IMG/VR virus record: IMGVR_UViG_3300001199_000009
Coordinates: 1-51,476 of that record
Length of the DNA stretch: 51,476 bases
Strand: one strand, 5' to 3'
Origin: a virus
Below the pieces are notes generated by a model. The model worked only from the letters and a program-made list of their open reading frames with translations, was not told where the DNA came from and did not search any database. Positions 6,469 through 51,476 of the stretch are shown here, piece by piece (the first letter of the stretch is position 1; every line of letters begins with the position of its first letter). A program made the position numbers and the translations under genes.

Positions 6469-7191
6469 TTAAAAGTTCGATGGAGTTGAAAATGTTGGAA
6501 ATGGTGAGTCCGCAATGCGACCAATAACATTTCCGTATGGTAGCCCTGGATTGGAAACAGAACGACTTGGCGTGCCTAAAGTTTCATCAAAACCAATAAC
6601 TTGGAAAGAGGTTGCTAAAGAAGCGTCATACGGAATGCCCACACCACCCGTCATATTGCAATATACGGTTGATTGATCGCCACTAAGAATAACTTTGCCA
6701 CCTGCATCCAAACTAAATACGAGTTGTCCCATTTGGAAGAGTCCAGTGCGCAAGCAACCATCCACACCTGTTTGAACAGAAAAACCAGGTTGATATGTTG
6801 CCAAAATAACAAAAGCCACAGGATCAGAACCATCACTTGTGGTTGTTCCTGCTCTCCAAGAGAGTTTCATGGGCAAGTTCTGAAACATCTCTGAGTCAGT
6901 ACTGTACTGGCACCCAGCAAACACGCCAAGAATAGGCCTGTTAACAACATTTACTAAGTCGCCGGTTGGTGCTGTAGTGTCAGCTCCGGAACCGATATAG
7001 CCACCGCCAGTTGTGACTGGGGAGGTCGCGGACAGCCATACGACCGGATCGCCCAAACCAATGTTTTGCGCATATCCATTTTCAATATTAAGTGTTACAA
7101 GAGATTGGCTTGCTAACCCTGAGCTAGGTAGCGAACCTAACATAAACCCTTTTGGAACAAGACCATTTGGAGCATCTACGCCGTATGCCAT
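6469..7191 (-). CDS. Hypothetical head-associated protein (240 aa, beta-rich); decoration, cement or scaffold role possible
   Basis: GAGG SD. First gene after the inserted cassette and directly upstream of the putative capsid gene. Confidence 0.55.
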   Translation of the reverse strand: MAYGVDAPNGLVPKGFMLGSLPSSGLASQSLVTLNIENGYAQNIGLGDPVVWLSATSPVTTGGGYIGSGADTTAPTGDLVNVVNRPILGVFAGCQYSTDSEMFQNLPMKLSWRAGTTTSDGSDPVAFVILATYQPGFSVQTGVDGCLRTGLFQMGQLVFSLDAGGKVILSGDQSTVYCNMTGGVGIPYDASLATSFQVIGFDETLGTPSRSVSNPGLPYGNVIGRIADSPFPTFSTPSNF

Positions 7192-7365
7192 AATTTAAAA
7201 CCTCATTTTGTTTTTTCTACAAAGAAAAGATAACAAGGTGAAAATAGGGTCGGTTATGGGCAGCAAAAATGTATCTTATACCAAACAGATTCGCCTCACA
7301 TTGAAACAAGAAGAGGAATCAAGCATTTTAAAGAAGAATGCTCTAAGCAATAGGAAACTTCGTAA

Positions 7366-8934
7366 ATGGCAGACACTCAGAAAGAACAAGAGCGCGCAGC
7401 ACTTCACTCCACCATTTGGCGAATCGCCAATGATCTGCGAGGAAGTGTAGATGGGTGGGATTTCAAGAAATATGTATTGGGTATGCTGTTTTACCGTTTT
7501 ATTTCGGAAAACCTAGCCTTCTACATTAATGCGAAAGAAAGAAAAGCTGGAGAAAAAAATTTCAGCTATGCAAGTTTAACAGATGATGAAGCTGAACGTG
7601 GCCGTGCATCCATCCTGGAAGAAAAGGGTTTCTTCATTCATCCAAGTGAACTTTTTGATAATGTCCGTAAGCAAGCAAAGAATGACAATCTTAACGAGAC
7701 CCTTGAAAGGGTCTTTCAAAATATTGAGGCTTCTGCCAAAGGAACAGCCAGCGAAAGTAACATGAAAGGGCTATTTGATGATATCGACGTCAACAGCAAT
7801 AAATTAGGAACAACAGTCTCAAAGCGTAATGAGAGTCTTGTTAAGTTGATGAATGCCATTGGTGATCTAAATATTGGTAATTATGATAATAACTCGATTG
7901 ATCTTTTCGGGGATGCCTACGAATATCTGATGACCATGTATGCAACTAACGGAGGAAAATCAGGAGGTGAGTTTTTTACACCTCAAGAAGTTGCCGAACT
8001 ACTTGCACAAATAACAGTTGTTGGAAGAACAGAGGTGAACAAAGTTTATGATCCTGCCTGTGGTTCTGGCTCTCTCCTTCTTAAGTTCGCCAAAGTGCTA
8101 GGCAAAGAAAATATTCGCAACGGTTTTTACGGTCAAGAAATCAATCACACGACCTACAATCTTTGTCGGATTAACATGTTCTTGCATGATATTAACTATG
8201 CGCAGTTCGATATAGCGCACGGCAACACCCTGATTGATCCCAAACATTGGGATGATGAACCTTTTGAAGCGATTGTTTCCAATCCTCCCTATTCCATCAA
8301 ATGGGAGGGGGACGCAAGCCCACTGCTGATTAATGATGAACGTTTTACTCCTGCTGGAGTTCTTGCTCCAAAATCTAAGGCAGACCTGGCTTTCGTGATG
8401 CACGCGCTTTCATGGCTGGCGACAAATGGTACAGCAGCCATCGTTTCTTTCCCTGGCGTTCTGTATCGTAGTGGGGCAGAGCAAAAGATCAGGCAATATC
8501 TGATCGATAATAACTTTATCGATGCGGTGATCCAACTTTCGCCAGACCTGTTCTTTGGTACCACTATTCCCACCTGCATTCTCGTTTTGAAAAAGAAAAA
8601 AGCTGATAATAAGACGCTGTTCATTAATGCGAGCGCAGAGTTTGTGCGCGGTTCAGCCAAAAACAAACTGACTACGGCGAATTCAAAAACGATTCTAGAT
8701 TGTTACACGAACCGCAATAATCAAGAACACTTTTCGCGTCTTGTAGACAATACCCAAATCGCCGAACAAGGTTATAACCTTAGTATTAGTTCTTATGTTG
8801 AACAAAAAGACACACGCGAAATTGTTGATATTACCGAATTGAATGCACGTATTGCGGAGATCGTGAAACGTCAGTTTGAATTGAGGACGCAGATTGATGC
8901 TATCGTGGCCGATCTTGAAGGAAAAGCTGCATGA
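7366..8934 (+). CDS. hsdM: Type I restriction-modification N6-adenine DNA methyltransferase subunit
   Basis: AdoMet motif [11 protein letters not shown] and catalytic motif [10 protein letters not shown]. HsdM-type N-terminal domain ([10 protein letters not shown]...[13 protein letters not shown]). Stop overlaps the hsdS start (ATGA). Confidence 0.9.
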
Positions 8935-9998
8935 TCAAGATTGATGACATGATTGCCAAATATTGTCCGAATGGGGTCATGTTTAAGTCGCTCAAGGAAG
9001 TTGCGCGCATTCGGAATGGGAAAGATTACAAAGAGTTCGGAAGGGGTAAAATCCCTGTCTACGGGTCAGGCGGAGTCATGACGAGGATAGATACGGCAGC
9101 TTACACGAATCCATCCGTATTGATTCCTCGCAAGGGATCTTTGAGAAATCTTTATTTCGTTGATGAACCTTTCTGGACGGTGGATACGATTTTTTATACA
9201 GAAATTAATGAGAACCTCATTGCACCAAAGTTCTTTTATTACTTCTTAGCTGCCCAAAGTCTAGCAGAATTAAACCAAGCTGGGGGTGTTCCGAGTCTTA
9301 CCAAATCAGTTTTGAATGAAATAAAAATTCCTATCCCTTCACTGGAAATTCAGCATGAGATTGTGAAGGTTCTTGACAGCTTTCCTCCGCTAGAAGCAGA
9401 ACTAGAAGCAGAACTAGAAGCACGTCGTCGACAGTACGAATACTATCGTGAAAAGCTTCTTGCTTTTGGGGGGGAGTTTAAGGAGTTGAGGGAAGTTTTA
9501 AACTATACTCGACCAGATAAATATATTGTAAAATCAACAAAATATGATAACAACCATTTAACACCTGTTCTGACTGCAGGTGATACATTCATATTGGGAT
9601 ATACTAATGAAATTGATGGAATCTACGAATCATCCTCACTTAATCCTGTAATAATCTTTGATGACTTTACCACTTCCTTTCATTGGGTTGATTTCTCTTT
9701 TAAAGTCAAGAGCTCTGCCATGAAAATACTGAGACCTGAAGACAATGTACTCTTCAGATACGTCTATTATGCAATGAAGTGTATCCAATACATTCCCTCA
9801 AGTCATGCGCGTCAATGGATTTCAATATATTCTGCTTTTAGAATTCCCATTCCTCCTCTTGAAATTCAGCATGAGATTGTAAAGATTTTGGACACCTTTA
9901 CTGAACTTGAGACTGAACTTGAGACTGAACTTGAGAAGCGCCAACAGCAGTACGAATACTATCGTAACAAGCTACTCACCTTTCAGGAGTTAGTTTAA
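8931..9998 (+). CDS. hsdS: Type I restriction-modification specificity subunit with two target-recognition domains
   Basis: Duplicated conserved blocks [19 protein letters not shown]...[13 protein letters not shown] and [19 protein letters not shown]...[14 protein letters not shown] separate two variable halves. Confidence 0.85.
9390..9422 (+). repeat. 12-bp tandem repeat ctagaagcagaa x2.75 inside the hsdS central conserved region ([11 protein letters not shown])
   Basis: Read directly at 9390-9401, 9402-9413 and 9414-9422. Confidence 0.9.
9900..9935 (+). repeat. 12-bp tandem repeat actgaacttgag x3 inside the hsdS distal conserved region ([12 protein letters not shown])
   Basis: Three perfect copies at 9900-9911, 9912-9923 and 9924-9935. 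Confidence 0.9.
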
Positions 9999-13761: not shown

Positions 13762-16414
13762 CGTCATGTACTCCTAGTTGTTCATTGTTAATTATATCAT
13801 TATTTCCATCGTCAGTCATCGGTGGATTTAATATACTTTGTTCTTGCTGATGTATGTTTAAAACCTTTTGTAGCCCCTCTAATTGAGCTGTTAAATGATC
13901 TAGTTGTTGGTTGTGCTGTTTAATTTCATTATCAAAATGATGAGATTGAAATTCTAACTCCAACCTTATGTTTTCTCTTACCTGCTCTTGTGCGTGGATA
14001 GCGGCTTTTAATGATTCCAATTCGGCATTGATATGCACCTTGGCGTCTTCAACACTTAGTTTCTTCATGGCTATCTCCGCATCGATCATAGCCGTTTCTT
14101 TTTTCATCTTAATCTCTTCAAGCTTAATTAAGCCTGGATCAATAGGTTTGTTTTGTTGCTCATGCTGTTTCATTTTTTCAGCACCTGCAGCTAAAGCTAA
14201 CGCTAATTGATTTTCTTGATCAGGCGGCAATTGCGACGGCCCACCTGGTTGTTGTGGTTGACCACCTTGTGCCCCCTGACCTGGTTGTGGAACTTGCACG
14301 CCTGACGCCATTTGGAGCTGTAAAAACATCAGGTCAGCCTCATGCTCTTTAATGTGAGCTTGGGTGGCCGCTATCACTTGAGGATCTGAATGGTTCAACA
14401 ACAGAGAGTGCACCGTAATATGAGCTTGGTGTTCCTGCTCGATGTAAGATTTCACGGGCTTAGACTGCAACAAGAAAGTGTTTTCAGTTAAAGGGTCCAT
14501 GGACGGAGGTGGAGGCGGTGGGGCGTTGTCGGGAATAACAACAATTTTTTTAATCTCATCATCTTTCAAACCCAAATCACTATATAAACGAATAAGCACT
14601 TGAGGTAGGTTATGGTTTTGAGGCATGGACTTGGCTTGATCCAAGATAAGCTGCGAACGCATCAGCTTATATGCCGTGCTCTCCCCAGAAAATTGACCGC
14701 ATGGAATAATCTCAAGGCCAGGTGAAAAGTCCTCTTTGCAAATATTAAGTAGTTCGCCACGCCATTGAATGCTAAACATTTGTTGGGCAGGCAACCATTC
14801 AAAGAATTTGCGCTTAAAGACACCTAATTCCTGCGAAAATGAATCATAAAAACCTTGCAGAATGGCGTTTGGTAATTGTTCCATACGCTGCAAAATGGCA
14901 AGCAGGTTAACGCCAGGGGCTTGTGTGGCCAAGTTCACCATGTCTTGGCTTACCACATGGGAAAACTGCCTAATCTCCCCCTCAAGCTGTTGCATGAGCT
15001 GCAAAATAACTGGGCTTGCCTCATTGTGCGGCATATAAGAAATTGATTTACTCAAATCACCTTCACTGTTAGGTGCCGTAAAGAATTTCCCGCTCTTAAA
15101 ATCAAATGTTCGATCAGTTACACGCCCACTTGGCGCAATAAAGCCTGTAGGTGTGTTGGCCAACAAAGCGTTATCAACTAAACCACGTTGAAGAACGGTA
15201 GCCGCTCGCGCTTTCTGTCCGCAAATATTCATCAGCCCATAGGAATGGTCATCATAAGATGGCATAAATGAATATCGAATATAGTCATTCAAAGGAAACT
15301 TTAAGGGGGCGGTTTCGTCGAAGTTATGACGAATGTTTGTTATAACTCCTTCTTCGCCCACTTGAATGGTGTAGGGAATTTCATGTGGGTCGCCTTCTTT
15401 GAGGTCCGGATCACTTGCGATATGAAGATCATTGTAATACTCATAGCCTTGGAATATTTTCGCGAAATCCTCGTCATATTCGTCATTGCCCGAATCAAGC
15501 GTACGTCCTGTTTGCTCTTTAAGTTTTGCTTTGAATCCTTCCTTTCTATCATCAGCTGAAATGGGTTTATCAAACATAGATGACCATTCACCGCTATCAA
15601 GCTTTCTTTCCATCTCAGATAAAGTAATGCGGTAAGCGTGAACAAAACCTCGGATGTGATAAAAGGATCTATCTTCCTCAGTAAAAAAGAAATCGCCAGG
15701 CTCAAGTAAGGCCGCATCAGGATAACCGCGATTAGGGCAATGATATATTTTGCGCATCGCGTCGCCATCTGTGATGGCATAGAGCAAAGATGTGGCAAGT
15801 TTGTGTCTGTATTCTGGCAACAATTCTTTTGTGAAATAAGCATCGCACCATTTAACAACACGCTCGGTAACAACGGCTATATCGGGGTTGCCCTCTAAAT
15901 GAGAACCAACAATAGTGTCAAATTTTTTATCTCTTAAAAAAAGAATTGTTAAAACGTTAAAACAAATGCTCATAGCTGTTTCAATAAGAGCTGTTGAAAA
16001 CAATTCCATAGAGCCACTGCCCTTAATGTAATTATCATCACCATTGCCAAGGGTTTGAGTAACCGAACCACTACCAGATTGGGAGGGTGCCTTCACCGAC
16101 ATCAGTTTGAGAAAACTCGCAAAGTTAGATGCAACATCCTGGTTGCTGTCCCTGCCCTTCTTAATTTTTGGCCATAACTTTTTTTGAAGAGCGGCCACAT
16201 CCTCGGGGTCTAACTCGGGAATAAGGTTACGAAAGAAGTCTTTTGGAGGTGCTTGATAAGCCTCAGCGTAATGTATTTGCGGTTGAACAGGCACAGGCAT
16301 TTGAGGCATAGGCGGCATGCCCCCCATATCCTGTGGCGGCATTCCCATGCCCCCATCAATCATATTGGGCGGGATCATACTCTGGGCTTGCTGGTTTAAT
16401 AAATCTTCGTTCAT
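13742..16414 (-). CDS. Putative portal protein (890 aa from ATG 16414) with a long C-terminal coiled-coil extension
   Basis: Large ORF immediately after and overlapping the terminase gene. GAGGAAG SD lies 5 nt before ATG 16414 (track start 16429 is a TTG). Assigned by size and synteny only. Confidence 0.65.
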   Translation of the reverse strand: MNEDLLNQQAQSMIPPNMIDGGMGMPPQDMGGMPPMPQMPVPVQPQIHYAEAYQAPPKDFFRNLIPELDPEDVAALQKKLWPKIKKGRDSNQDVASNFASFLKLMSVKAPSQSGSGSVTQTLGNGDDNYIKGSGSMELFSTALIETAMSICFNVLTILFLRDKKFDTIVGSHLEGNPDIAVVTERVVKWCDAYFTKELLPEYRHKLATSLLYAITDGDAMRKIYHCPNRGYPDAALLEPGDFFFTEEDRSFYHIRGFVHAYRITLSEMERKLDSGEWSSMFDKPISADDRKEGFKAKLKEQTGRTLDSGNDEYDEDFAKIFQGYEYYNDLHIASDPDLKEGDPHEIPYTIQVGEEGVITNIRHNFDETAPLKFPLNDYIRYSFMPSYDDHSYGLMNICGQKARAATVLQRGLVDNALLANTPTGFIAPSGRVTDRTFDFKSGKFFTAPNSEGDLSKSISYMPHNEASPVILQLMQQLEGEIRQFSHVVSQDMVNLATQAPGVNLLAILQRMEQLPNAILQGFYDSFSQELGVFKRKFFEWLPAQQMFSIQWRGELLNICKEDFSPGLEIIPCGQFSGESTAYKLMRSQLILDQAKSMPQNHNLPQVLIRLYSDLGLKDDEIKKIVVIPDNAPPPPPPSMDPLTENTFLLQSKPVKSYIEQEHQAHITVHSLLLNHSDPQVIAATQAHIKEHEADLMFLQLQMASGVQVPQPGQGAQGGQPQQPGGPSQLPPDQENQLALALAAGAEKMKQHEQQNKPIDPGLIKLEEIKMKKETAMIDAEIAMKKLSVEDAKVHINAELESLKAAIHAQEQVRENIRLELEFQSHHFDNEIKQHNQQLDHLTAQLEGLQKVLNIHQQEQSILNPPMTDDGNNDIINNEQLGVHDDGLHTN

Positions 16415-21375: not shown

Positions 21376-22671
21376 TCACCGATATAACTGTAGAGTTTGC
21401 CGCGGTATATCGTACTGGAATTGATCGTAAGAATATTTGTTGTTCAAGTAGTCCTTGTGGAACTGCGAGTTTACATGAAAGCAATAATCTGATTCACCCT
21501 CAAATGGCAAATCCTTAATCCAGGTTGCGTAATGATCGGGCCCCATTTTTGCAAGTAGAGCGAGGCGGGCTTCTTTTTGGGGTAGCGATTCGGTGCTTTC
21601 AAATCCAATTGCGCGCTGCAGTTCTTCCATTTTTTCAGACATGCTTTTAACTGGTTGGGATATATTCATCATCTTTCTCGCCTCTTTCTTAGGTTTTATT
21701 AACGTTCTAGCAAACATGTATAGATTCTTAAATCTCAGGGCCTCTGTCAAGTTTCCAGCGAGGTTTTCTTTCGCCCACGCGGCAAGTTTTCTAAAGTTCT
21801 CCCGTGTCGGCCGGAATATTTCCCGTTCGAAGATAGCCCCAACAAACGTAAAATACTTCTTGTGTCGCTCAATATCGACCCATCGTTTAGATCGGCCCAC
21901 ATTGCCCCGAAACACGGGGGCGTAGCCCTTAGTTGTCCCTTTGTGTACTTCCTCCTCAAGAACGACTCCCATGGCGTAGATGAGCTCTCCAAGGCTGCTA
22001 ACTGCTTCTTGCTGACAAAGCGCAGCATAGCGGGCGCCTCCATAGCGCTGCCGCGCATGCAAGCGTGAGTTATCCACACCCTTATCATCACGTATATGAT
22101 ATAAATAACCCCGTAGGGGATTGGATACCGTTTGAAGATGGCGGATTTGTTCGGGTTCAGCCTTCAACAAGATAGATTGTGTGTTGCAATTTCCCTTAGG
22201 ATTCGTGACGCATTTACGGCCTTTGTACCTACCAACCTTTTGTTTAAAGCCTGGGACCTTACGGATAATATGCATGGGGTCGAACTGGCATATATCCGTG
22301 AGCGTCATTTTTTCGCTATGAGGTCTAATACCGCAGGGGACATAATTTTGTCCCTTAAGGAACGTTTCGAGCACTTTATAGTTAATAGCGTAGCAGTTAG
22401 TAGTTTTGCGTTTAACAAAATCGGGCTTTCTAACCACGATGATGCCGTTTTCCACCAAGAACTTAAGCGCTGTAAAAAAAGAATTTCTTTGATAGGTAAC
22501 TGCGCTAATTAATTCTTCCGCCGTGGCCCAAACAAAGGGCATAACCCCCCCACCCACATCACGAACGAACACGCGTTCTGGGTATTGTGCATAAAAATCG
22601 TGCAAAACAATGAGTAGCTCTTCACATTTCTTGGTGAAAGTATTATACTTAAAAGTACGAAGAAAGGTCAT
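21376..22671 (-). CDS. Putative replication initiator (N-terminal winged-helix-like region, C-terminal DnaA-N-terminal-domain-like segment)
   Basis: ELISAVTYQRNSFFTALKFLVENGIIVV resembles a wHTH. GPDHYATWIKDLPFEG...FHVNSQFHKDYL resembles the DnaA N-terminal pattern (f..Wi.pL......l.vpn.f..dwi). Iterons abut its start codon. No catalytic motif recognised. Confidence 0.4.
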   Translation of the reverse strand: MTFLRTFKYNTFTKKCEELLIVLHDFYAQYPERVFVRDVGGGVMPFVWATAEELISAVTYQRNSFFTALKFLVENGIIVVRKPDFVKRKTTNCYAINYKVLETFLKGQNYVPCGIRPHSEKMTLTDICQFDPMHIIRKVPGFKQKVGRYKGRKCVTNPKGNCNTQSILLKAEPEQIRHLQTVSNPLRGYLYHIRDDKGVDNSRLHARQRYGGARYAALCQQEAVSSLGELIYAMGVVLEEEVHKGTTKGYAPVFRGNVGRSKRWVDIERHKKYFTFVGAIFEREIFRPTRENFRKLAAWAKENLAGNLTEALRFKNLYMFARTLIKPKKEARKMMNISQPVKSMSEKMEELQRAIGFESTESLPQKEARLALLAKMGPDHYATWIKDLPFEGESDYCFHVNSQFHKDYLNNKYSYDQFQYDIPRQTLQLYR

Positions 22672-22780
22672 AAGATAGGTCCTTTTTAGTTAAGTGCGAA
22701 GAAGGGTCATGTGATGTGTCCTTTTTAGTTAAGTACGAAGAAGGGTTCATAAGATGGGTCCTTTTTAGTTAAGTGCGAAG
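22649..22780. repeat. Iteron-like array of about 3.5 direct repeats, 39-40 bp each (TTAGTTAAGTRCGAAGAAGGGTCATRWGATGKGTCCTTT). The first copy overlaps the rep start codon
   Basis: Copies at about 22649-22685, 22686-22724, 22725-22764 and partial 22765-22780. Each full copy carries a rep-start-like ATGACC/ATGAAC on the minus strand. Confidence 0.8.
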
Positions 22781-22939
22781 CTCGGTCGGGCAAAAATTGC
22801 CTTGTCCTTGTTAAAAAGAAAACTAACAAGTTTTTCGGCTTGTGGTTAAAGAAGAAGAAGAAGGGGCAGCTTGCTGCTTTTGAGAGATGGATGGCTTTTA
22901 CCTCGCTTTCTTTTCTTTCTTTCTTTTTTTTCTTGTTCA

Positions 22940-23920: not shown

Positions 23921-24700
23921 TTATCTGTAGTCTCGTTTTCCCGCCATTATCAAGTTGTGACGACTAAGCGGGGTTAAATCTATCTGCTTCAATCCATCAC
24001 ACCTGAAAAGGAAATAATCACCAATTGTGGTGACATTGCAAAGTGGGCTCACATCCAACTGCTGCAAAGCTAGGCAATCGTAAAGAAAAGACTGCCCTAT
24101 CGTGGTGACATTGCTAAACGGGCTTAAATCTATCTGCTGCAATCCATTACACCAGGCAAGGAAATAATCACCAATGGTTGTTACGTTGCTAAGCGGGCTT
24201 AAATCCAACTGCTGCAAAGCTGTACAATAGGCAATGAAATAATCACCAATGGTTGTGACATTGCTAAACGGTGTTAAATCCAACTGCGTCAGTCCCTCAC
24301 AACAGTAAATAAAAAACTTCCCTATCGTTGTGACGTTGCAAAGTGGGCTTAAATCTATCTGCTTCAATTCGTCACATCCGTGAAGGAAATGACTACCAAT
24401 GGTTGTGACATTGCAAAGGGGGCTTAAATCTATCTGCGTCAATCTTCTACAACAGCCAAGAAACCAGTTTCCAATGGTTGTGACATTGCAAAGTGGGCTT
24501 AAATCTATCTCCTTCAATCCATAACAACAGGAAAGAAAATCATGCCCAATGGTTGTTACGTTCTCCGCATTGATGATCTCTATATTGATAATCTTTATTT
24601 CCTCAATTCTCTTGCGTGGGAAAGATATAGAGTCCATTTCCAGTACAGAATCACCCTCACAGTCAATTGTTAGCTTGCTGCCTTCAAAAGTAAATTTCAT
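23921..24700 (-). CDS. Leucine-rich-repeat protein, BspA/TpLRR type, 8 units of 25 aa (LRR paralog 4 of 4)
   Basis: Repeating L.QIDLSPLCNVTTIGDYFL..C.. units. Conserved N-terminal block MKFTFEGSKLTIDCEGDS. Start overlaps the upstream stop (ATGA). Confidence 0.85.
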   Translation of the reverse strand: MKFTFEGSKLTIDCEGDSVLEMDSISFPRKRIEEIKIINIEIINAENVTTIGHDFLSCCYGLKEIDLSPLCNVTTIGNWFLGCCRRLTQIDLSPLCNVTTIGSHFLHGCDELKQIDLSPLCNVTTIGKFFIYCCEGLTQLDLTPFSNVTTIGDYFIAYCTALQQLDLSPLSNVTTIGDYFLAWCNGLQQIDLSPFSNVTTIGQSFLYDCLALQQLDVSPLCNVTTIGDYFLFRCDGLKQIDLTPLSRHNLIMAGKRDYR

Positions 24701-25224
24701 CTATTTTCTCCTTCTTTAAGAGCCGCCATTACCGGGCTTAAATCTAACTCCCTCAATCTTCTACAATAGCCAAGAAAATTACTACCTATCCTGGTGACAT
24801 TGCAAAGGGGGCTTAAATCTAACTCCCTCAATCTTCTACAACAGGAAAGAAAATCATGCCCAATGGTTGTTACGTTGCTAAGCGGTGTTAAATCTATCTG
24901 CTCCAGTCCTCCACAACAGTAAAGGAAACGATCACCAATTGTGGTGACATTGCTAAGTGAGGTTAAATCCAACTGCGTCAGTTCATTACAATCGTAAAGG
25001 AAATCATCACCAATTGTGGTGACATTGCAAAGTGGGCTTAAATCTATCTGCGTCAATCCCCAAGAATCGTAAAAACACCAGTTACCAATGGTTGTGACGT
25101 TCTCCGCATTGATAATCTCTATTTCCTCAATTCTCTGGCAGTGGAAAGAATCTGAGTCCATTTCCAGTAAAGACTCACCCTCACAGTCAATTGTTAGCTT
25201 GCTTCCTTTAAAAGTAAATTTCAT
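24697..25224 (-). CDS. Leucine-rich-repeat protein, BspA/TpLRR type, 5 units (paralog 3 of 4)
   Basis: Same 25-aa unit and N-terminal block. C-terminal DLSPVMAALKEGENR. ATGA overlaps at both ends. Confidence 0.85.
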   Translation of the reverse strand: MKFTFKGSKLTIDCEGESLLEMDSDSFHCQRIEEIEIINAENVTTIGNWCFYDSWGLTQIDLSPLCNVTTIGDDFLYDCNELTQLDLTSLSNVTTIGDRFLYCCGGLEQIDLTPLSNVTTIGHDFLSCCRRLRELDLSPLCNVTRIGSNFLGYCRRLRELDLSPVMAALKEGENR

Positions 25225-25898
25225 CTACTTTTCCCTTCTTTAAGAGCCGCCATTACCGGGCTTAAATCTATCTGCTTCAAATCTTCACACCTGAAAAGGA
25301 AACCATGCCCAACTGTGGTGACATTGCCAAGCGGGCTTAAATCTAACTGCTTCAGCCCACCACAATGGGCAAGGAAATCATCTCCAATCGTGGTGACATT
25401 GCTAAACGGGCTCACATCCAACTGTGTCAGTCCATCACAAGCGTAAAGGAAATAATCACCAATGGTTGTGACATTGCAAAGCGGGCTTAAATCTATCTGC
25501 GTCAATTCATCACAACCGCAAAGGAAAGAATTACCAATCGTGGTGACATTGTTAAACGGGCTTAAATCTATCTGCGTCAATTCATTACACCAGGCAAGAA
25601 AACAATCACCAATGGTTGTGACATTGCAAAGCGGGCTTAAATCCAACTGCGTCAGTCCCTCACAATCGTAAAGAAAAGAATCACCAATCGTGGTGACGTT
25701 GCCAAGCGGGCTCAAATCAAGATGCTGCAAAGCTGTACAATCGAAAAGGAAATCATCTCCAATCGTGGTGACGTTCTCTGCATTGATAATCTCTATTTCC
25801 TCAGCACGCCTGCATGGGAAAGAATCTGAGTCCAGATCCAGTAAAGAATCACCTTCGCAGTCAATCGTTAGCTTGCTGCCTTCAAAATTAAATTTCAT
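25221..25898 (-). CDS. Leucine-rich-repeat protein, BspA/TpLRR type, 7 units (paralog 2 of 4)
   Basis: Same unit and N-terminal block. C-terminal DLSPVMAALKEGKSR. ATGA overlaps. Confidence 0.85.
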   Translation of the reverse strand: MKFNFEGSKLTIDCEGDSLLDLDSDSFPCRRAEEIEIINAENVTTIGDDFLFDCTALQHLDLSPLGNVTTIGDSFLYDCEGLTQLDLSPLCNVTTIGDCFLAWCNELTQIDLSPFNNVTTIGNSFLCGCDELTQIDLSPLCNVTTIGDYFLYACDGLTQLDVSPFSNVTTIGDDFLAHCGGLKQLDLSPLGNVTTVGHGFLFRCEDLKQIDLSPVMAALKEGKSR

Positions 25899-26497
25899 CT
25901 ACTTTTCCCTTCTTTAAGAGCCGCCATTACCGGGCTTAAATCTATCTTCTGCAAAGATGTACATCTGGAAAGGAAACGATCACCAATTGTGGTGACATTG
26001 CAAAGCGGGCTTAAATCTATCTGCTGCAAAGCTTCACATAAGGCAAGGAAACAATCCCCAATGGTTGTTACGTTGCTAAGTGGGCTTAAATCCAACTGCT
26101 TCAATCCATCACAACAGAAAAGGAAACGATCCCCAATTGTGGTGACATTGCAAAGTGGGCTTAAATCTATCTGCTGCAATCTTCTACAACCGTAAAGAAA
26201 ATCATTCCCAACTGTGGTGACGTTGCAAAGCGGTGTTAAATCTATCTGCCACAAAGCTCTACAATTGAAAAGGAAACAATCCCCAATGGTTGTGACGTTG
26301 CTCAGCGGTGTTATATCCAACTGCTGCAAAGCTGTACAACAGAAAAGGAAACGATCCCCAATTGTGGTGACGTTCTCTGCATTGATAATCTCTATTTCCT
26401 CAACGAGCCTGCGTGGGAAAGAATCTGAGCCCATTTCCAGTAAAGACTCACCCTCACAGTCAATCGTTAGCTTGCTGCCTTCAAAATTAAATTTCAT
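25895..26497 (-). CDS. Leucine-rich-repeat protein, BspA/TpLRR type, 6 units (paralog 1 of 4)
   Basis: Same unit and N-terminal block. C-terminal DLSPVMAALKEGKSR. Start abuts the stop of 26498..26992. Confidence 0.85.
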   Translation of the reverse strand: MKFNFEGSKLTIDCEGESLLEMGSDSFPRRLVEEIEIINAENVTTIGDRFLFCCTALQQLDITPLSNVTTIGDCFLFNCRALWQIDLTPLCNVTTVGNDFLYGCRRLQQIDLSPLCNVTTIGDRFLFCCDGLKQLDLSPLSNVTTIGDCFLALCEALQQIDLSPLCNVTTIGDRFLSRCTSLQKIDLSPVMAALKEGKSR

Positions 26498-26992
26498 CTA
26501 CTTTTCCTCGTCGTAGGGGGCCTTAAAAACAATAGAAATCAAGCTCTTTGGCACATTAAACTTACGTGCTAGCTCATGAATGGATTCTGTGTGGTTCTCG
26601 CTATTTAGAATGCGCCGTATCTCACCAGTCGGCATGATAAGATCAACCGCACACTTAAACGCCACATCATCCTTAGCCTTCCCAAGGTTTGTACTAAACA
26701 ATTCACTGACCGTAACCTTGTCCGCAATGGCGCCCTTGTGAATCATGTAGTGCGACAATAGAAAGCTCTTGATGAATCGAACTATAGGACTCTGTGGTGA
26801 AAACTCATCAGAAATTTTAATAAGCACCCCAATATCAGATACCAACATTTCGGCAATACAAGGCAAAGGCACGTCATACGAAACATTTATACCAACCTTT
26901 AGTAGCATCCCATCTATATTGATCGGTAAATCTTTTATAAAAGGCGACAACTTGTTGTAGAAATGACTTGGATATGGATAAATTTTATTCAT
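26498..26992 (-). CDS. ImmA/IrrE (DUF955)-like protein with a degenerate active site (HEXXH replaced by FLLSH)
   Basis: Aligns with 33152..33637: RFIKSFLLSHYMIH versus RFTIAHEIAHFVLH; AVDLIMP versus ATDILMP; ELARKFNVPKSLISIVF versus TLAEVFNVSNSAMSIRL. Confidence 0.55.
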   Translation of the reverse strand: MNKIYPYPSHFYNKLSPFIKDLPINIDGMLLKVGINVSYDVPLPCIAEMLVSDIGVLIKISDEFSPQSPIVRFIKSFLLSHYMIHKGAIADKVTVSELFSTNLGKAKDDVAFKCAVDLIMPTGEIRRILNSENHTESIHELARKFNVPKSLISIVFKAPYDEEK

Positions 26993-27019: not shown

Positions 27020-27277
27020 CTATAACATCTCTTCTGCTTCTCCTGCTAGGACGTCGTTCAAAAAGGACTGCAACTCGTCCGCGTCTTCTTCTACACATAT
27101 AAAGGAGTATGTTTCATCATCTGAAAGAACAAAACTGTGCTCACGTTTATCATTCGTCTTACTCTCTTCTTTAATCACATACTGTGGATCAATATGCACC
27201 TTATCACTAGGGTGATACATTGCACCAACACCAATAATGGTGATGGCTATCGCTGATATTATCATAATTTTCTTCAT
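27020..27277 (-). CDS. Small signal-anchored or secreted acidic protein (85 aa)
   Basis: MKKIMIISAIAITIIGVGAM hydrophobic N-terminus and an acidic C-terminal half. Confidence 0.5.
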   Translation of the reverse strand: MKKIMIISAIAITIIGVGAMYHPSDKVHIDPQYVIKEESKTNDKREHSFVLSDDETYSFICVEEDADELQSFLNDVLAGEAEEML

Positions 27278-27431: not shown

Positions 27432-27461
27432 TAGCTATCTAGAATTCTGTCCAGATAGCTA
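27432..27461 (-). terminator. Rho-independent-like terminator after the chaperonin gene (TAGCTATCT-N12-AGATAGCTA, then CTTTTCTATTT on the minus strand)
   Basis: 9-bp perfect stem read directly. A T-rich tract follows on the coding strand, 12 nt after the stop. Confidence 0.5.
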
Positions 27462-27472
27462 TCTATACGGGC

Positions 27473-29152
27473 CTACATGCCCATGCCAGGAAGGCCATTC
27501 ATTAAAGAAGAACGATCAGGCATTTTGCCCGTTCCTACAATCGCCTCTGTTGTCATAATCATGGATGAAACAGAAATAGCGTCTTTAAGAGCCGTTGTGA
27601 TCACAAAAGTAGGATCAATAATTCCCTCCAGCAAAAGGTTGACCTCATTGCCCGTTGAGCTATCAAAACCAAACGAAGAATAATTTACCTCTGCTTCACA
27701 CATGTAATAAGAGAAAAGTTTTTCGCTTGGATCAAAACCCGCATTGATCAGTATCTGAAAACACGGCTGCTCAATACCCGCAAGCACTATGTCAAATCCT
27801 GCTATCCAACCTGCACGGGAATGATCAAGGGGTGCCTCTTGCTTGAAGATACTCTCCCTATTAGCTTCAAGGGTTTGAGCTGCCTTCAATAAAGCAAATC
27901 CACCACCTGGGCTAATACCCTCTTTAAAAGCCGCCTTAACCGCATTAATAGCATCCTCAACGCGATCATACAGTTCAAGCCTTTCTACCTCTGTGGGAGC
28001 CCCCACGCGCAAGCTAGCAATACCTGTATCCAAACTTCCTAAACGCTTATCCAAATATTCTCGTGTTGAAGCGTCCTGGCACTTTTCAATGCTGTCGCGT
28101 ACTTGCTGGGCCCTCACCTGGCATTCTTCAGGATTGCCCTGGCCATTCACAATAAGAGTGGATATTTCATCAATAACACAACGATCAGCTTGGCCTAACA
28201 TATCAAGCGTGATTTTCTCGGGCTTAATACCTGATGCCATACTTAAATAGCGTGCACCCGTAATGGCCGCAATGTCCTTCAATAATTCCGTTCTCTTCTC
28301 GCCAGAATAGGGGGCATTCACCGGACATGTTTTTACTGCATGGCGATTGGCAATAAGCATAGCTAAGCCCTCGCCATCTATTTCATCACAGATGATAAGT
28401 AATGAACGTCCAGTATCTTTTACCGCAGACACAAGGTTGGCAAACGGTTTGAAAACAGGAATCTTTTCATTCCATATAAGAATATAAGGATTTTCCAACA
28501 AACATGTCTCGTTTGGCTGGTTCATAAAATAAACGCTACTCCAACCTTTGCTTATCTGACAGCCGCGGATAATCTCTAAATGTGATTTTGGAAAGTCTGA
28601 ATGAGCCAGCGTGATCACACCATCTTGGCCAACGTTTTGAACAGCCTCAACTAAAAGGGCGCCAATGTGCTTGTCTCCATTACACGCAAGGGTGCCAACT
28701 GATAAAATTTGTTCGTCGTTCTCAATGCTTAAAGAGCGGCTGCGCAATAAATCAACAACTCGACCCTCCGCCGCTTTCATGCCGCGCCCCAGGTCAATTG
28801 GGCTATAACCCGCTGTTAAAAGCTTGTAGCCCTCTTGAATAAATTTTTGCGCTAGAACAGTGGCTGTTGTGGTGCCATCACCCGCTAATTTGGCTGTCTT
28901 GGCCGCCGCCTCACGCACAATTTGAATGCCAATATTGATATCACTATCGTCTGTATCTTCAATATGATTAGCTACCGTTACACCGTCCTTCGTCATACGA
29001 GGGGGGCCTCCCCACGGATTCTTAATGGCCACATTGCGACCCCGTGGCCCAAGAGTGGTTTTAACAGCGTTAGCTAATAAATTAACCCCTTCCATCATTT
29101 TTGAGCGCGCTTGAATCCCAAGTAATACAGAGGAATTTTTATGTGTTGTCAT
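27473..29152 (-). CDS. groEL: GroEL/Cpn60 family chaperonin (559 aa), divergent phage-borne copy
   Basis: [20 protein letters not shown] (nucleotide-binding loop), [20 protein letters not shown] (GroEL [20 protein letters not shown]), apical GWSSVYF (GroEL GYLSPYF), C-terminal GLPGMGM tail. Confidence 0.92.
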
Positions 29153-29514: not shown

Positions 29515-30597
29515 ATGGCAGCTAATCCTTCGTTTGTTAAGCATGATAGCTCTGAGAGAAACACCGAATCTGTTCGTATTTTTCAAGAAATCTTAAAACT
29601 CAAAAAACAAATCCACTTTGATGTCATAAAAAACAAATTTAACGGAACCATAAGAAATTTGTTTTGTAATTGGACATATCAATTGGGAATGGGAATACGC
29701 CGTGAACGCGACTTACATGCTCACTCCATCGGCAAACAATTTAGATTAACTCAATGGCACGCTGAGCTCTACTGTCTTTCAAAGAACTACGACGAATGCG
29801 CCGTTCAACTACTCGATAATTTTCACTTTCAACACAAATCACTCTTCCAAGTCGTTCAAAACGTCCCTGTGGGGACCTCTGCACTTGTATGGAAAGAAAT
29901 AGAGAAACACATAGAAAATCTCGTCAATATCCACAGGCCCTCTGTCTTCTATTGTGTTAGCATTTACAAAAGATACTATCGAATCCCTCTAAACGACCTC
30001 ATTCAAGTGGCATGGATGGTTTTAGTTGAATCTATCCAACACTATGACGTTGAGATGGGTGTGCCTTTTATCACCTACTATATGATACGCATCAAAGTGT
30101 ATCTCAGGCGCGCCTATACCAACTCGTGTGATATTATCTTGCGTGATGATGAATTCCTGCAATTTGCCAAACTTCAATACCTGCTTGAGAAAAACAATGA
30201 GGACCCAACCAACCCATCGTTTATCAAACGATGTAAAGCTCTCTTTAACGTGGATGATGTGGGGGCCCTTGTCGAAGATCATTTGATGAAATACAGCGCA
30301 ATGAATATGGCGGACATATCCAAGTTGCCTAACATTTCAATTCAAGATGAATCCAGAAACGGAACGTTTGAAGAGAAAAACGAAATTAAAAGCCGTGATA
30401 AAGCACTTATGACAGCAATTAACCAACTAGATGAAACAACACGTGAGATTCTTTTGATGAACTTTGGGTTTAAAGATGAACGCCACTATAATCGAGAGGA
30501 AATTGCCCTCAAGCTTAAAATACCCGTGTGTCGGGTGAGGGCTTTGAAAAATGCAGCCCTAGAAAAACTCAAGGAGTTAATGGAAAACCCATGGTAG
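29515..30597 (+). CDS. Sigma-70 family RNA polymerase sigma factor (360 aa)
   Basis: Region 2: DLIQVAWMVLVESIQHYDVEMGVPFITYYMIRIKVYLRRAY (cf. DLIQEGNIGLMKAVDKFD...F.TYA.WWIRQAI.R). Region 4: REILLMNFGF...REEIALKLKIPVCRVRALKNAALEKLK. Confidence 0.85.
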   Translation: MAANPSFVKHDSSERNTESVRIFQEILKLKKQIHFDVIKNKFNGTIRNLFCNWTYQLGMGIRRERDLHAHSIGKQFRLTQWHAELYCLSKNYDECAVQLLDNFHFQHKSLFQVVQNVPVGTSALVWKEIEKHIENLVNIHRPSVFYCVSIYKRYYRIPLNDLIQVAWMVLVESIQHYDVEMGVPFITYYMIRIKVYLRRAYTNSCDIILRDDEFLQFAKLQYLLEKNNEDPTNPSFIKRCKALFNVDDVGALVEDHLMKYSAMNMADISKLPNISIQDESRNGTFEEKNEIKSRDKALMTAINQLDETTREILLMNFGFKDERHYNREEIALKLKIPVCRVRALKNAALEKLKELMENPW

Positions 30598-33151: not shown

Positions 33152-33637
33152 TCAAGGGTACACCACCTTTGACTCAAATGGCACACCAAGCCTGATTGAC
33201 ATGGCACTGTTAGAAACATTGAACACCTCAGCAAGTGTTTCTATTGTTTCAATGTTCTGCCTTATAGCCTCATTAACCAAATCCCAAGGCATTAAAATGT
33301 CCGTAGCATAAGAATTAGCCTGTGTTTCAACTAAATTAGTTAAACCACTCCTATAAAGTGCGTCATCAATTATTTCATCCTTAATCAAATTACTATGAAG
33401 TACAAAATGGGCAATCTCGTGAGCAATTGTAAATCTTTGCCTGACTTTTGAATGATCAGCATTGATATAAATCACAAAACCATTCTCTTCTTTGGTGAGT
33501 TTGCCAGAAAGTTCTTTAGGCCAATCCTTTACAGTAAAAACCACTAGCCCCATATCACGAGCAATTTTCACAACAGGAACAGGCCATTTACTCTGATGTT
33601 TTGCAATGATTTCTTGCGCTTTGTCTAGCCTAATCAT
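33152..33637 (-). CDS. ImmA/IrrE family (DUF955) zinc metallopeptidase with an intact HEXXH
   Basis: FTIAHEIAHFVLH motif, downstream E..AN.YA.DILMP block and typical size of about 160 aa. Confidence 0.75.
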   Translation of the reverse strand: MIRLDKAQEIIAKHQSKWPVPVVKIARDMGLVVFTVKDWPKELSGKLTKEENGFVIYINADHSKVRQRFTIAHEIAHFVLHSNLIKDEIIDDALYRSGLTNLVETQANSYATDILMPWDLVNEAIRQNIETIETLAEVFNVSNSAMSIRLGVPFESKVVYP

Positions 33638-50686: not shown

Positions 50687-51476
50687 CTAGTTTGGATTAA
50701 CTATTTGCCAGTAAACATCAACCGAGGTGGCTTGGCCCGCTCCGCCCACCAAGAAAACAGTTATATTAAACGAAGTAGCGTTTACACGCCCTGCGGCGGG
50801 AGCAGTAATAATAGGAGCCGTTACAATACCTCCGCCTGCCATATCCGCGATTGTGAGATTAATAATGGAAGAAGTCGTAACGGCTGTGGAGTTAATTGTT
50901 GTTGTGCCTGAAATTCCAGTAGCCAGACCAACAGTTGCTGCCGCTCCAGAATTCTTATTCGTTGATGTCCATGCAGGTATACCGGAGGCAACTGTATATA
51001 CTTGGCCAGTCGTACCAATAGCTAAACGTGCGTTTGTAGAACCAGCCGTTCTGTAAATCGTATCGCCTGTGGTCGTCGTTGGCGCGAGAGCATTAAAACC
51101 AGCTGAGGCCGTTGTTTGGCCTGTGCCGCCCTTTGCTACAGATAAAGTATTTATAGTTAATGTAATGGTCCCTGAATTGTTAATAGGTGATCCACTAACA
51201 GTAATAAACGAATTTGACGAGGAGACGCCCACGGAGGCATTCACCCAACGTGGCAAAACACTTGGCCCAACTACTTGGCATGATAAAACTTTGCCAGGAA
51301 AATCATTGAGTAGAGCCACCCAAGATGAGGTGGAAGCTTGGTAATAAAGCATGTCCCCGTCCAACCCCGCAGGGGCGAGAGCATCAAATGCATCTGAGGC
51401 CGTTATTTGACCTGTTCCGCCAAGAGTAATAGGTAGCGTGTTAATGGTCATGGCAAGCGTGCCAGAGGTCGTAACA
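50687..51476 (-). CDS. Tail fibre, C-terminal part (continuation of the ORF that starts at nt 809; nt 51426-51476 duplicate nt 1-51)
   Basis: Repeated module ...ITxxGSPxxxSGTxxxTINTLxxxxGGTGQxTASxxFxALAP... occurs at the junction and again internally. Stop at 50687. Confidence 0.75.
   Translation of the reverse strand, partial: VTTSGTLAMTINTLPITLGGTGQITASDAFDALAPAGLDGDMLYYQASTSSWVALLNDFPGKVLSCQVVGPSVLPRWVNASVGVSSSNSFITVSGSPINNSGTITLTINTLSVAKGGTGQTTASAGFNALAPTTTTGDTIYRTAGSTNARLAIGTTGQVYTVASGIPAWTSTNKNSGAAATVGLATGISGTTTINSTAVTTSSIINLTIADMAGGGIVTAPIITAPAAGRVNATSFNITVFLVGGAGQATSVDVYWQIVNPN
51426..51476. repeat. Terminal direct repeat (right copy), identical to nt 1-51
   Basis: Direct comparison of both ends of the window. 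Confidence 0.9.

Follow-up and report, generated by a model that had tools for sequence, protein, structure and literature searches.

In this study, an array of four consecutive genes for small leucine-rich repeat (LRR) proteins was characterized in a stretch of viral DNA, the IMG/VR record IMGVR_UViG_3300001199_000009 (51,476 nucleotides, analysed at full length and hereafter called the window). The array consists of four consecutive open reading frames (ORFs) on the minus strand across positions 23921-26497, designated A to D in the order of transcription (Table 1). It is a real, lineage-specific and rapidly diverging accessory cassette of minimal LRR modules in a phage, and it occupies a slot that is filled in a sister phage by ankyrin and LRR-ankyrin genes.

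Architecture and predicted fold of the LRR array

The four proteins share a common plan: an N-terminal cap (N-cap) of about 41 aa, a run of 25-aa units and a short C-terminal cap (C-cap). When the units were segmented by anchoring on the NVTT motif, 6, 7, 5 and 8 of them were counted in A, B, C and D, respectively (26 in total), with a spacing of 25 aa throughout. The lengths of A, B and C equal 50 + 25n aa, and all three end in DLSPVMAALKEG(K/E)(S/N)R. Gene D is the exception, as its conserved N-terminal block (N-block) contains a duplication of 5 aa (IINIE) and its tail is different and 4 aa longer. At the DNA level, Tandem Repeats Finder (TRF) recovered a 75-bp period over 23966-25718, with 23.2 copies.

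All four proteins matched the Pfam family LRR_5 (PF13306) at 70-109 bits (E 1e-19 to 1e-31), above the curated gathering cut-off of 27.7 bits, and the Pfam scan found no domain besides LRR in A-D. The 26 units conform to the LRR_5/BspA-type repeat consensus LxxIxLxxxLxxIGxxAFxxCxxL (about 23-25 residues). AlphaFold2, run on the gene B protein with a 31-sequence alignment, produced an LRR solenoid with a pLDDT of 93.8 and a pTM of 0.89. In this model, DSSP assigned an N-terminal beta-hairpin to residues 2-12, followed by a loop of lower confidence and by a first LRR strand, at 33-37, that is degenerate; the C-terminal part comprises regular units and then a helix at 212-220 (the VMAALKEGK tail). 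Foldseek gave the best superposition of the gene B model on the BspA/TpLRR-class structures 4fs7, 4h09 and 6mlx (probability 1.00, TM 0.55-0.61). The best E-value was obtained for InlJ, a cysteine-ladder LRR protein, but with a TM of 0.40.

Hydropathy analysis found no hydrophobic N-terminal segment in A-D, where Kyte-Doolittle means over 12 residues peak at 0.2-0.3 (<=0.32) within the first 36 aa, and no segment of transmembrane grade. The proteins are acidic (pI 4.0-4.6) and contain 11-16 cysteines each, a richness that would fit a reducing compartment. Lacking both a signal peptide and any further domain, each protein is predicted to be a free cytoplasmic, acidic, cysteine-rich and minimal cap-LRR(n)-cap module for protein binding.

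The array proteins share the LRR_5 match, the consensus and the solenoid (TM ~0.55-0.61) with BspA/TpLRR proteins such as T. pallidum TpLRR (6mlx) and Bacteroides BACOVA_04585 (4fs7). They differ from these in having strictly 25-aa units, a length of 175-259 aa and no signal peptide, anchor or extra domain. They are also phage-encoded and apparently translationally coupled, with a cysteine ladder (C13 in 25 of the 26 units) reminiscent of InlJ. The export and anchoring features of BspA-like surface adhesins (Tannerella BspA, Treponema LrrA and those of Trichomonas) were not found in A-D by hydropathy or Pfam. Nor does the array match the internalins (InlA/InlJ), which have a signal peptide, a helical N-cap, LRRs of 21-22 aa, an Ig-like domain and a wall anchor. 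With its 25-aa unit, beta-hairpin N-cap and lack of extra domains, it has only the idea of a cysteine ladder in common with them.

All three junctions (A/B, B/C and C/D) are 4-nt ATGA overlaps, and the TAG stop codon of a 164-aa ORF (26498-26992) directly adjoins the ATG of A. The Shine-Dalgarno sequence of each downstream gene (GAAGGG or AAGGAG) lies within the codons of the preceding KEG(K/E)(S/N)R ending, 7-8 nt 5' of the ATG. Gene D, with no coupled gene downstream, has a tail without the Shine-Dalgarno-bearing KEGKSR motif. The C-tails and junctions are more alike among the genes than the units are, partly because the C-tail codons double as the Shine-Dalgarno sequence of the following gene, and the longest exact direct repeat of the array is a 59-bp pair with one copy at each of the A/B and B/C junctions. 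This arrangement suggests that A-D are functionally coupled in translation through the ATGA overlaps, with ribosome-binding sites supplied by the C-tail codons of the preceding gene, and that the four genes are probably carried on one message together with the upstream 164-aa gene, which is IrrE-like.

These results agree with the initial annotation, made from the sequence alone, on the four tandem LRR genes with their unit counts and the length rule of the first three, the ending common to three genes, the 75-bp periodic DNA, the ATGA start/stop overlaps and the lack of an evident signal peptide. Its assignment to the BspA/TpLRR class was borne out by the profile search, and the structure prediction that it had proposed as a check gave a confident solenoid with matches to TpLRR/BspA-like structures.

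Divergence of the units and variation of the cargo slot

The four genes do not differ only by whole units, as had been claimed. Pairwise amino-acid identity among the paralogs is 66-75%, and nucleotide identity among the 26 units averages 74%, with a range of 57-91%; the mean is 0.748 within genes and 0.742 between genes. No collinear block of units linked any two genes, the best scoring 0.77-0.80 where the background is 0.74. Similarity is higher in the flanks than in the units, the N-block being 84-90% identical in nucleotides. A higher-order period of 225 bp (three units), hinted at by TRF, was rejected, as identity at a lag of three units was 0.758, against 0.753 and 0.746 for lags of one and two.

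The unit consensus is LxxIDLxxLxNVTxIGxxFLxxCxx. Residues N1, V2, T3, G6, L16 and D20 are invariant in all 26 units, and F9 and C13 are each found in 25. Amino-acid variation is concentrated at about 8 of the 25 positions (7, 8, 11, 12, 14, 15, 17 and 25), while the remainder forms a conserved scaffold. The classical concave-strand positions, as located from the LRR register, are conserved (Q18, D20 and S/T22), and pairs of variable residues flank F9/L10, C13 and L16. The scaffold codons show many synonymous and few non-synonymous differences (pS 0.435, pN 0.075). This points to old units kept under purifying selection and is unlike the product of an assembly artefact. Targets of diversity-generating retroelements offer no parallel, for no reverse transcriptase was found in the ORFs scanned and the variation is not confined to one template-like copy.

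The family may have expanded through duplication of genes, with 75-bp units also gained and lost in register. Within the array there are exact repeats of 59, 42 and 39 bp, which could support unequal recombination despite the modest mean identity. To this extent the earlier view of the array as a recombination substrate stands, but "obvious" was an overstatement for units that are only about 74% identical. In the LRR units, the codons of VTTIGD form an inverted repeat (GTCACCA-CAAT-TGGTGAT), which a terminator scan flagged in five units (24017-24034, 24931-24948, 25005-25024, 25680-25697 and 25979-25996). It was rejected as a functional element; all seven pairs are kept in only 5 of the 26 units, and the hairpin is probably a by-product of codon choice.

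Relatives of the phage were found by searches with the large terminase subunit (TerL) and GroEL. One relative, with 97% TerL identity, is present in samples ERZ27247774, ERZ27247837 and ERR3094279; its contig L011 (8.7 kb, ERZ27247774) is 96.3-97.7% identical to the core DNA of the window. Another contig of ERZ27247774, L005 (882 bp), carries three ATGA-coupled LRR genes with the N-block and C-tail of the window genes, and its complete middle gene has three units. Nowhere in the window array does identity to L005 exceed 80%, and no single ortholog of L005 is present there. If L005 belongs to the phage with 97% TerL identity, divergence or turnover of the array would be several-fold faster than that of the core. 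The sequence divergence is observed directly; a turnover of the array much faster than that of the phage core would be the process behind it.

In a sister phage of 50.1 kb (TerL 78%, GroEL 77%), the gene order is GroEL, a 75-aa gene, an IrrE-like homolog, a 161-aa gene, two ankyrin genes, an LRR-ankyrin fusion and a 178-aa LRR gene. The IrrE-like homolog (L050, 6454-6942) takes the same position as in the window and is 39% identical. The fusion (338 aa; L050, 8391-9407, plus strand) combines the N-cap and about 7 LRR_5 units with a C-terminal ankyrin domain, and the 178-aa gene, with the N-cap and ~4-5 units, is ATGA-coupled. A second cassette elsewhere in this phage reads LRR135 (3 units), LRR206 (6 units), a helix-turn-helix gene and an ankyrin gene. 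A third relative (TerL 76%) possesses a three-unit gene with the N-cap directly downstream of a GH108 lysozyme gene and a 69-aa ORF, with coordinates that overlap by 4 nt. No ankyrin gene is present in the window. Multi-copy mini-LRR genes of 3 to 8 units, with ankyrin genes in variable cargo slots, are thus a trait of the clade. The variation in unit and gene number among relatives that had been predicted was observed, with a three-unit gene in L005 and with 3/6 and ~7/~4-5 units in the sister phage. A difference between scaffolds L049 and L050 in the LRR-ankyrin gene, at first taken for real structural variation, was withdrawn. At 14042-15158 of L049, this gene is broken by an N gap within two identical units, which illustrates how short-read assembly fails in such arrays.

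Distribution of the repeat type and possible role of the proteins

Among 1.84 billion representative proteins, the full N-block had one other match (P0012, from L005). When GTDB genomes, IMG/VR and JGI metagenomes were scanned for the N-block pattern, no further copy appeared, and neither LRR-B nor TerL, each used as a single query protein, had a match in IMG/VR. By these searches, the N-block LRR family is lineage-specific.

The 25-aa NVTTIG unit type was found in proteins of Holosporales metagenome-assembled genomes (MAGs) that are 56-61% identical to the window LRR, the degenerate first unit included; the window LRR is closer to these proteins than to the LRR of the sister phage (47%). The unit type was also found in an alphaproteobacterial MAG from Lake Tanganyika, in an ordinary chromosomal context, in Rickettsiales, "CAED1" and other MAGs, and in protist transcriptomes. 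It further occurs on low-GC contigs with F-box-like N-termini, and in ubiquitin-like (Ubl)+LRR proteins on contigs up to 2.16 Mb; in P0003/P0029 the LRR accompanies a ubiquitin-like domain (PF00240, by precomputed annotation). Across all IMG/VR, the unit type was found only in one giant-virus MAG, and the LRR_5-like matches among 50,697 phage records numbered 8, all weak. The LRR family is therefore as unusual a phage cargo as had been proposed, and the suggested tie of this LRR type to intracellular bacteria and protists is supported by its presence in Holosporales-like and Rickettsiales MAGs and in protist transcriptomes. A tblastn search with the non-LRR proteins of the window against the fetched LRR loci gave no match, so that none of these loci is syntenic or phage-like.

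The LRR_5 clusters of the Holosporales MAG (L002), the CAED1 MAG (L020) and the giant-virus MAG (L030) resemble the array in their 25-aa NVTTIG units. They too consist of neighbouring paralogs with a common N-terminal module and differing unit numbers (for example 6/10/4, 7/9/6 and 11/7/28). However, the cellular and giant-virus versions are 290-1250 aa long, carry F-box, Ubl or other extensions and are not ATGA-coupled; unlike A-D, several cellular ones begin with N-termini that by eye are hydrophobic and signal-peptide-like. A-D also differ from F-box-LRR and ubiquitin-like-LRR effector mimics in lacking an N-terminal F-box or Ubl domain, which the relatives L020 and P0003/P0029 have. In L020, from the MAG "Proteobacteria bacterium CAED1", the gene at 7125-8315 (plus strand) encodes an F-box (PF12937 E 9e-8, PF00646 E 8e-6) fused to 25-aa LRR_5 units and adjoins two LRR paralogs with signal-peptide-like N-termini; its product looks like a bacterial mimic of the substrate adaptors of eukaryotic Skp1-cullin-F-box (SCF) ligases. 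Two further contigs, L006 (ERZ25333236 ctg708, 2.16 Mb) and L001 (ERZ25333188 ctg295, 48.6 kb), contain ubiquitin-like+LRR_5 clusters with 5/5/7 and 11/7/28 units, respectively. Their remaining genes are almost without Pfam matches, and both could be giant-virus or eukaryote-like genomes.

A-D may form a diversifying binding repertoire aimed at proteins of the eukaryotic (protist) cell that harbours the bacterial host, a proposal whose chances of being right or wrong we consider about equal. They would reach their targets upon lysis of the bacterium by the phage, inside or beside the protist cell, or through export by some other route. Two observations count for a eukaryote-directed role: the NVTTIG relatives in Holosporales/Rickettsiales MAGs, protist transcriptomes and a giant-virus MAG, together with the F-box/Ubl fusions, and the physical fusion of the LRR domain to ankyrin repeats in the sister phage. 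A more extended model is put forward only tentatively, as somewhat doubtful. In this model, a clade of phages of protist-associated Alphaproteobacteria would carry a "eukaryotic association" slot downstream of the phage GroEL, in which mini-LRR arrays, ankyrins and LRR-ankyrin fusions are interchangeable. The genes would be drawn from a pool common to endosymbionts, giant viruses and protists, and their products, set free at lysis, would manipulate the protist.

Phage cargo of eukaryote-like repeat proteins is already known, and the parallels for the eukaryote-directed role would be the eukaryotic association module (EAM) of Wolbachia phage WO, which is rich in ankyrin, and the ankyrin proteins encoded by the Ankyphages of sponge symbionts. 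The criteria for the EAM include domains of eukaryotic function shared by phage and eukaryote-associated genomes, genes among the largest of the phage and, as criterion iv, an obligate intracellular bacterial host, with the module absent from phage-free symbiont genomes (PMC5062602). Similar to the EAM, the array is a cargo region with eukaryote-like interaction repeats and homologs in eukaryote-associated genomes, and it varies between related phages. Ankyrin genes are a further likeness, but it is the sister phages of the window that carry them in the same slot. As for shared domains, the unit type is present in protist transcriptomes, the giant-virus MAG and the F-box/Ubl fusions, although LRR itself is not eukaryote-specific. 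Unlike the EAM, the array is built of LRR_5 rather than ankyrin, tetratricopeptide repeat (TPR) or latrotoxin domains, and the phage type is unrelated to WO (podovirus-like, no integrase found), with a host that may not be intracellular. Ankyphage ANKp are small eukaryote-like repeat proteins proposed to modulate the eukaryotic host for the symbiont (bioRxiv 10.1101/608950); the window differs in having LRR instead of ankyrin, a multi-copy tandem array and no signal peptide by hydropathy. In the literature, no precedent was found for mini LRR_5 genes that are arrayed in tandem in a phage and coupled in translation, or for a GroEL-linked slot in which LRR, ankyrin and LRR-ankyrin genes are swapped within a clade.

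Several points weigh against a eukaryote-directed role. The affinities that bear on the bacterial host are only indirect, alphaproteobacterial and Holosporales-like, none of the data place it inside a eukaryote, and the TerL relatives infect free-living marine Alphaproteobacteria. LRR identities are inflated by scaffold residues, and the 56-61% match to Holosporales is weak evidence of the host. Because the variable positions were picked for their variability, their dN/dS of 2.4 is circular, and the variable surface, as placed by register and DSSP rather than by coordinates, would not coincide with the canonical concave face. L005 and L011 are linked only by the sample they share. A-D are small (175-259 aa), whereas the genes of the WO EAM rank among the largest in phages. 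Finally, no secretion or translocation signal was found in A-D by hydropathy or Pfam scan.

Since no export signal was found, A-D could equally act inside the bacterium, as a host-takeover or anti-defence repertoire that binds or decoys bacterial proteins (e.g., immune sensors or proteases) in an arms race with the bacterium. An intrabacterial role would be consistent with the missing signal peptide, the acidic pI, the divergence that is very fast relative to core genes, and the location of the array in a non-structural accessory region beside a chaperonin and an IrrE-like gene, as well as with a host that may not be intracellular. However, PADLOC matched no defence family to A-D, and the PHROG matches were weak, local and to families of unknown function. 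Moreover, the F-box, Ubl and ankyrin fusions of the relatives and their occurrence in giant viruses and protists would make sense only in a eukaryotic cytosol. We consider action inside the bacterium unlikely.

It is very improbable that A-D are virion-associated or receptor-binding proteins, serving as interchangeable LRR tail adaptors that broaden or switch the host range. Some phage LRR proteins in BFVD are large and surface- or tail-like, and variation in repeat number is typical of adhesins, but A-D are small and without an anchoring domain. Over 10 kb separate the array from the tail module (37.5-51.4 kb), the genes around it are regulatory or cargo genes, its slot in the sister phage holds ankyrin and LRR-ankyrin genes, and the LRR gene of one relative follows a lysozyme gene. 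There is hardly any likelihood that the gene or unit number stems from mis-joining or from repeat collapse or expansion in short-read assembly: the 59-bp exact repeat flanking gene B exceeds the 51-bp terminal overlap of the window, so that in an assembly with k=51 read pairs would have to settle how many copies of gene B there are, and scaffold L049 of the sister phage breaks inside identical LRR units, but all 26 units are distinct (57-91% in nucleotides) and in frame, without stops or frameshifts, and independent assemblies from other samples have ATGA-coupled N-cap LRR genes with other unit counts.

If the eukaryote-directed reading is true, "eukaryotic association" cargo would be recurrent in phages of eukaryote-associated bacteria beyond WO and the sponge Ankyphages, and the principle of the WO EAM would extend from insect Wolbachia to freshwater protist symbioses. 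The LRR_5 mini-proteins would then be a new, rapidly diversifying effector scaffold, and a flow of genes between phages, endosymbionts, giant viruses and protists would be visible. If A-D instead act within the bacterium, they would represent a new class of proteins by which a phage takes over its host or counters its defences. In either case the cassette is a small natural example of how repeat proteins diversify, with a fixed cap-scaffold-cap plan, 3-8 units and a hypervariable surface.

Genome context and other features of the window

Table 1. Positions in the window of the LRR genes, their junction elements and the neighbouring genes
Feature	Position	Strand	Description	Match or remark
LRR gene A	25895..26497	-	200 aa: N-cap, 6 x 25-aa units, C-cap helix tail	LRR_5 E 1.9e-19, 70.2 bits
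LRR gene B	25221..25898	-	225 aa: N-cap, 7 units, C-cap	LRR_5 E 2.1e-31, 108.9 bits; AlphaFold-modelled
LRR gene C	24697..25224	-	175 aa: N-cap, 5 units, C-cap	LRR_5 E 8.5e-21, 74.6 bits
LRR gene D	23921..24700	-	259 aa: N-cap (5 aa duplicated), 8 units, divergent tail; final gene of the array	LRR_5 E 1.3e-26, 93.4 bits
A/B junction element	25889..25947	-	C-tail codons with Shine-Dalgarno GAAGGG, ATGA overlap, N-cap start of next gene	59-bp exact repeat
B/C junction element	25215..25273	-	second copy of the 59-bp exact repeat	
IrrE/M78-like protein	26498..26992	-	164 aa, degenerate HEXXH	weak Peptidase_M78, E 1e-3
85-aa protein	27020..27277	-	hydrophobic N-terminus; between GroEL and the IrrE-like gene	
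GroEL-like chaperonin	27473..29152	-		Cpn60_TCP1 187 bits; phrog_5725 E 6e-115

An exact 51-bp direct repeat at 1-51 and 51426-51476 points to a circularly closed or terminally redundant genome of ~51,425 bp. With this terminal overlap, the window is read as the circularly closed genome of a podovirus-like phage, whose core genes resemble those of alphaproteobacterial phages. Its TerL matches phrog_38 (E 4e-63), and a portal-like protein is also encoded, as are an SU10-type adaptor, a GH108 lysozyme, a single-stranded DNA-binding protein and a sigma factor; the capsid-fold match is weak. The largest ORFs of the window are 895-1095 aa, far above the 175-259 aa of A-D. The nearest characterised TerL proteins are those of Roseobacter phages CRP-901/902 and of Pelagibacter phages, at about 31% identity or less, and a megablast of the 20-30 kb part of the window found no nucleotide match in INPHARED phages. 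Neither an integrase, which would bear on the lysogenic conversion suggested earlier, nor a reverse transcriptase was found among the ORFs scanned, and no tRNA was found in the window.

The GroEL of the window is 42-45% identical to the nearest cellular GroELs, of which the few named are mostly alphaproteobacterial, and has orthologs of 77% and 67% identity in two sister phages. P0160 is 100% identical to it, and in an exact-sequence look-up neither LRR-B nor the window GroEL was on record. A contig of 56,060 bp (Logan/ENA), exceeding the window by 4.6 kb, encodes a GroEL at least 90% identical to that of the window (P0289) and is probably a close relative with different cargo. Further GroELs from close relatives (P0281, P0282 and P0288) are encoded on contigs of 8.9-9.3 kb. 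A terminator-like hairpin (27432-27461) lies 3' of GroEL, and no GroES-like gene was noticed adjoining it. In the third relative (TerL 76%), the cargo region encodes a DnaJ-domain protein (L051, 17504-18211, minus strand), a fragment resembling a nicotinamide mononucleotide (NMN) transporter (15897-16166, plus strand) and an ankyrin protein (14847-15296, plus strand). DnaJ together with GroEL is a notable chaperone complement.

The positional counterpart of the 85-aa protein in the sister phage is 75 aa long, with no sequence similarity detected. The GroEL gene anchors the cargo slot in the synteny among these phages, and the IrrE-like gene is conserved as the neighbour on its upstream side. 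The IrrE-like protein is paralogous (E 2e-10) to that encoded at 33152-33637 on the minus strand, both being IrrE/ImmA (Peptidase_M78)-like. It has SHYMIH where the paralog has HEIAH, and it is probably inactive because the catalytic Glu is lost.

Three iteron-like direct repeats of ~40 bp, 85-90% identical and spaced 39-40 bp, are located at 22668-22787. They sit at the start of a 431-aa gene (21376-22671, minus strand) that has a weak DnaA_N-like C-terminal region and is conserved in the sister phages (47-50%). The iterons and this gene are probably the replication origin and initiator. A 1.2-kb AT-rich, ORF-poor stretch lies between the iteron region and the array.

At 7366-9998, the type I restriction-modification methylase HsdM (N6_Mtase E 1.5e-111) and the specificity subunit HsdS (E 8e-33) are encoded on the plus strand, opposite to the structural gene block within which they lie. 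No HsdR was seen, and the portions of the sister phages that were fetched lack the pair; it may be an orphan methylase for self-protection. Divergent from GroEL is a gene for a sigma-70-family protein (29515-30597, plus strand; region 4 E 6.5e-8, region 2 weak and below the Pfam cut-off), which has counterparts at the same position in the sister phages.

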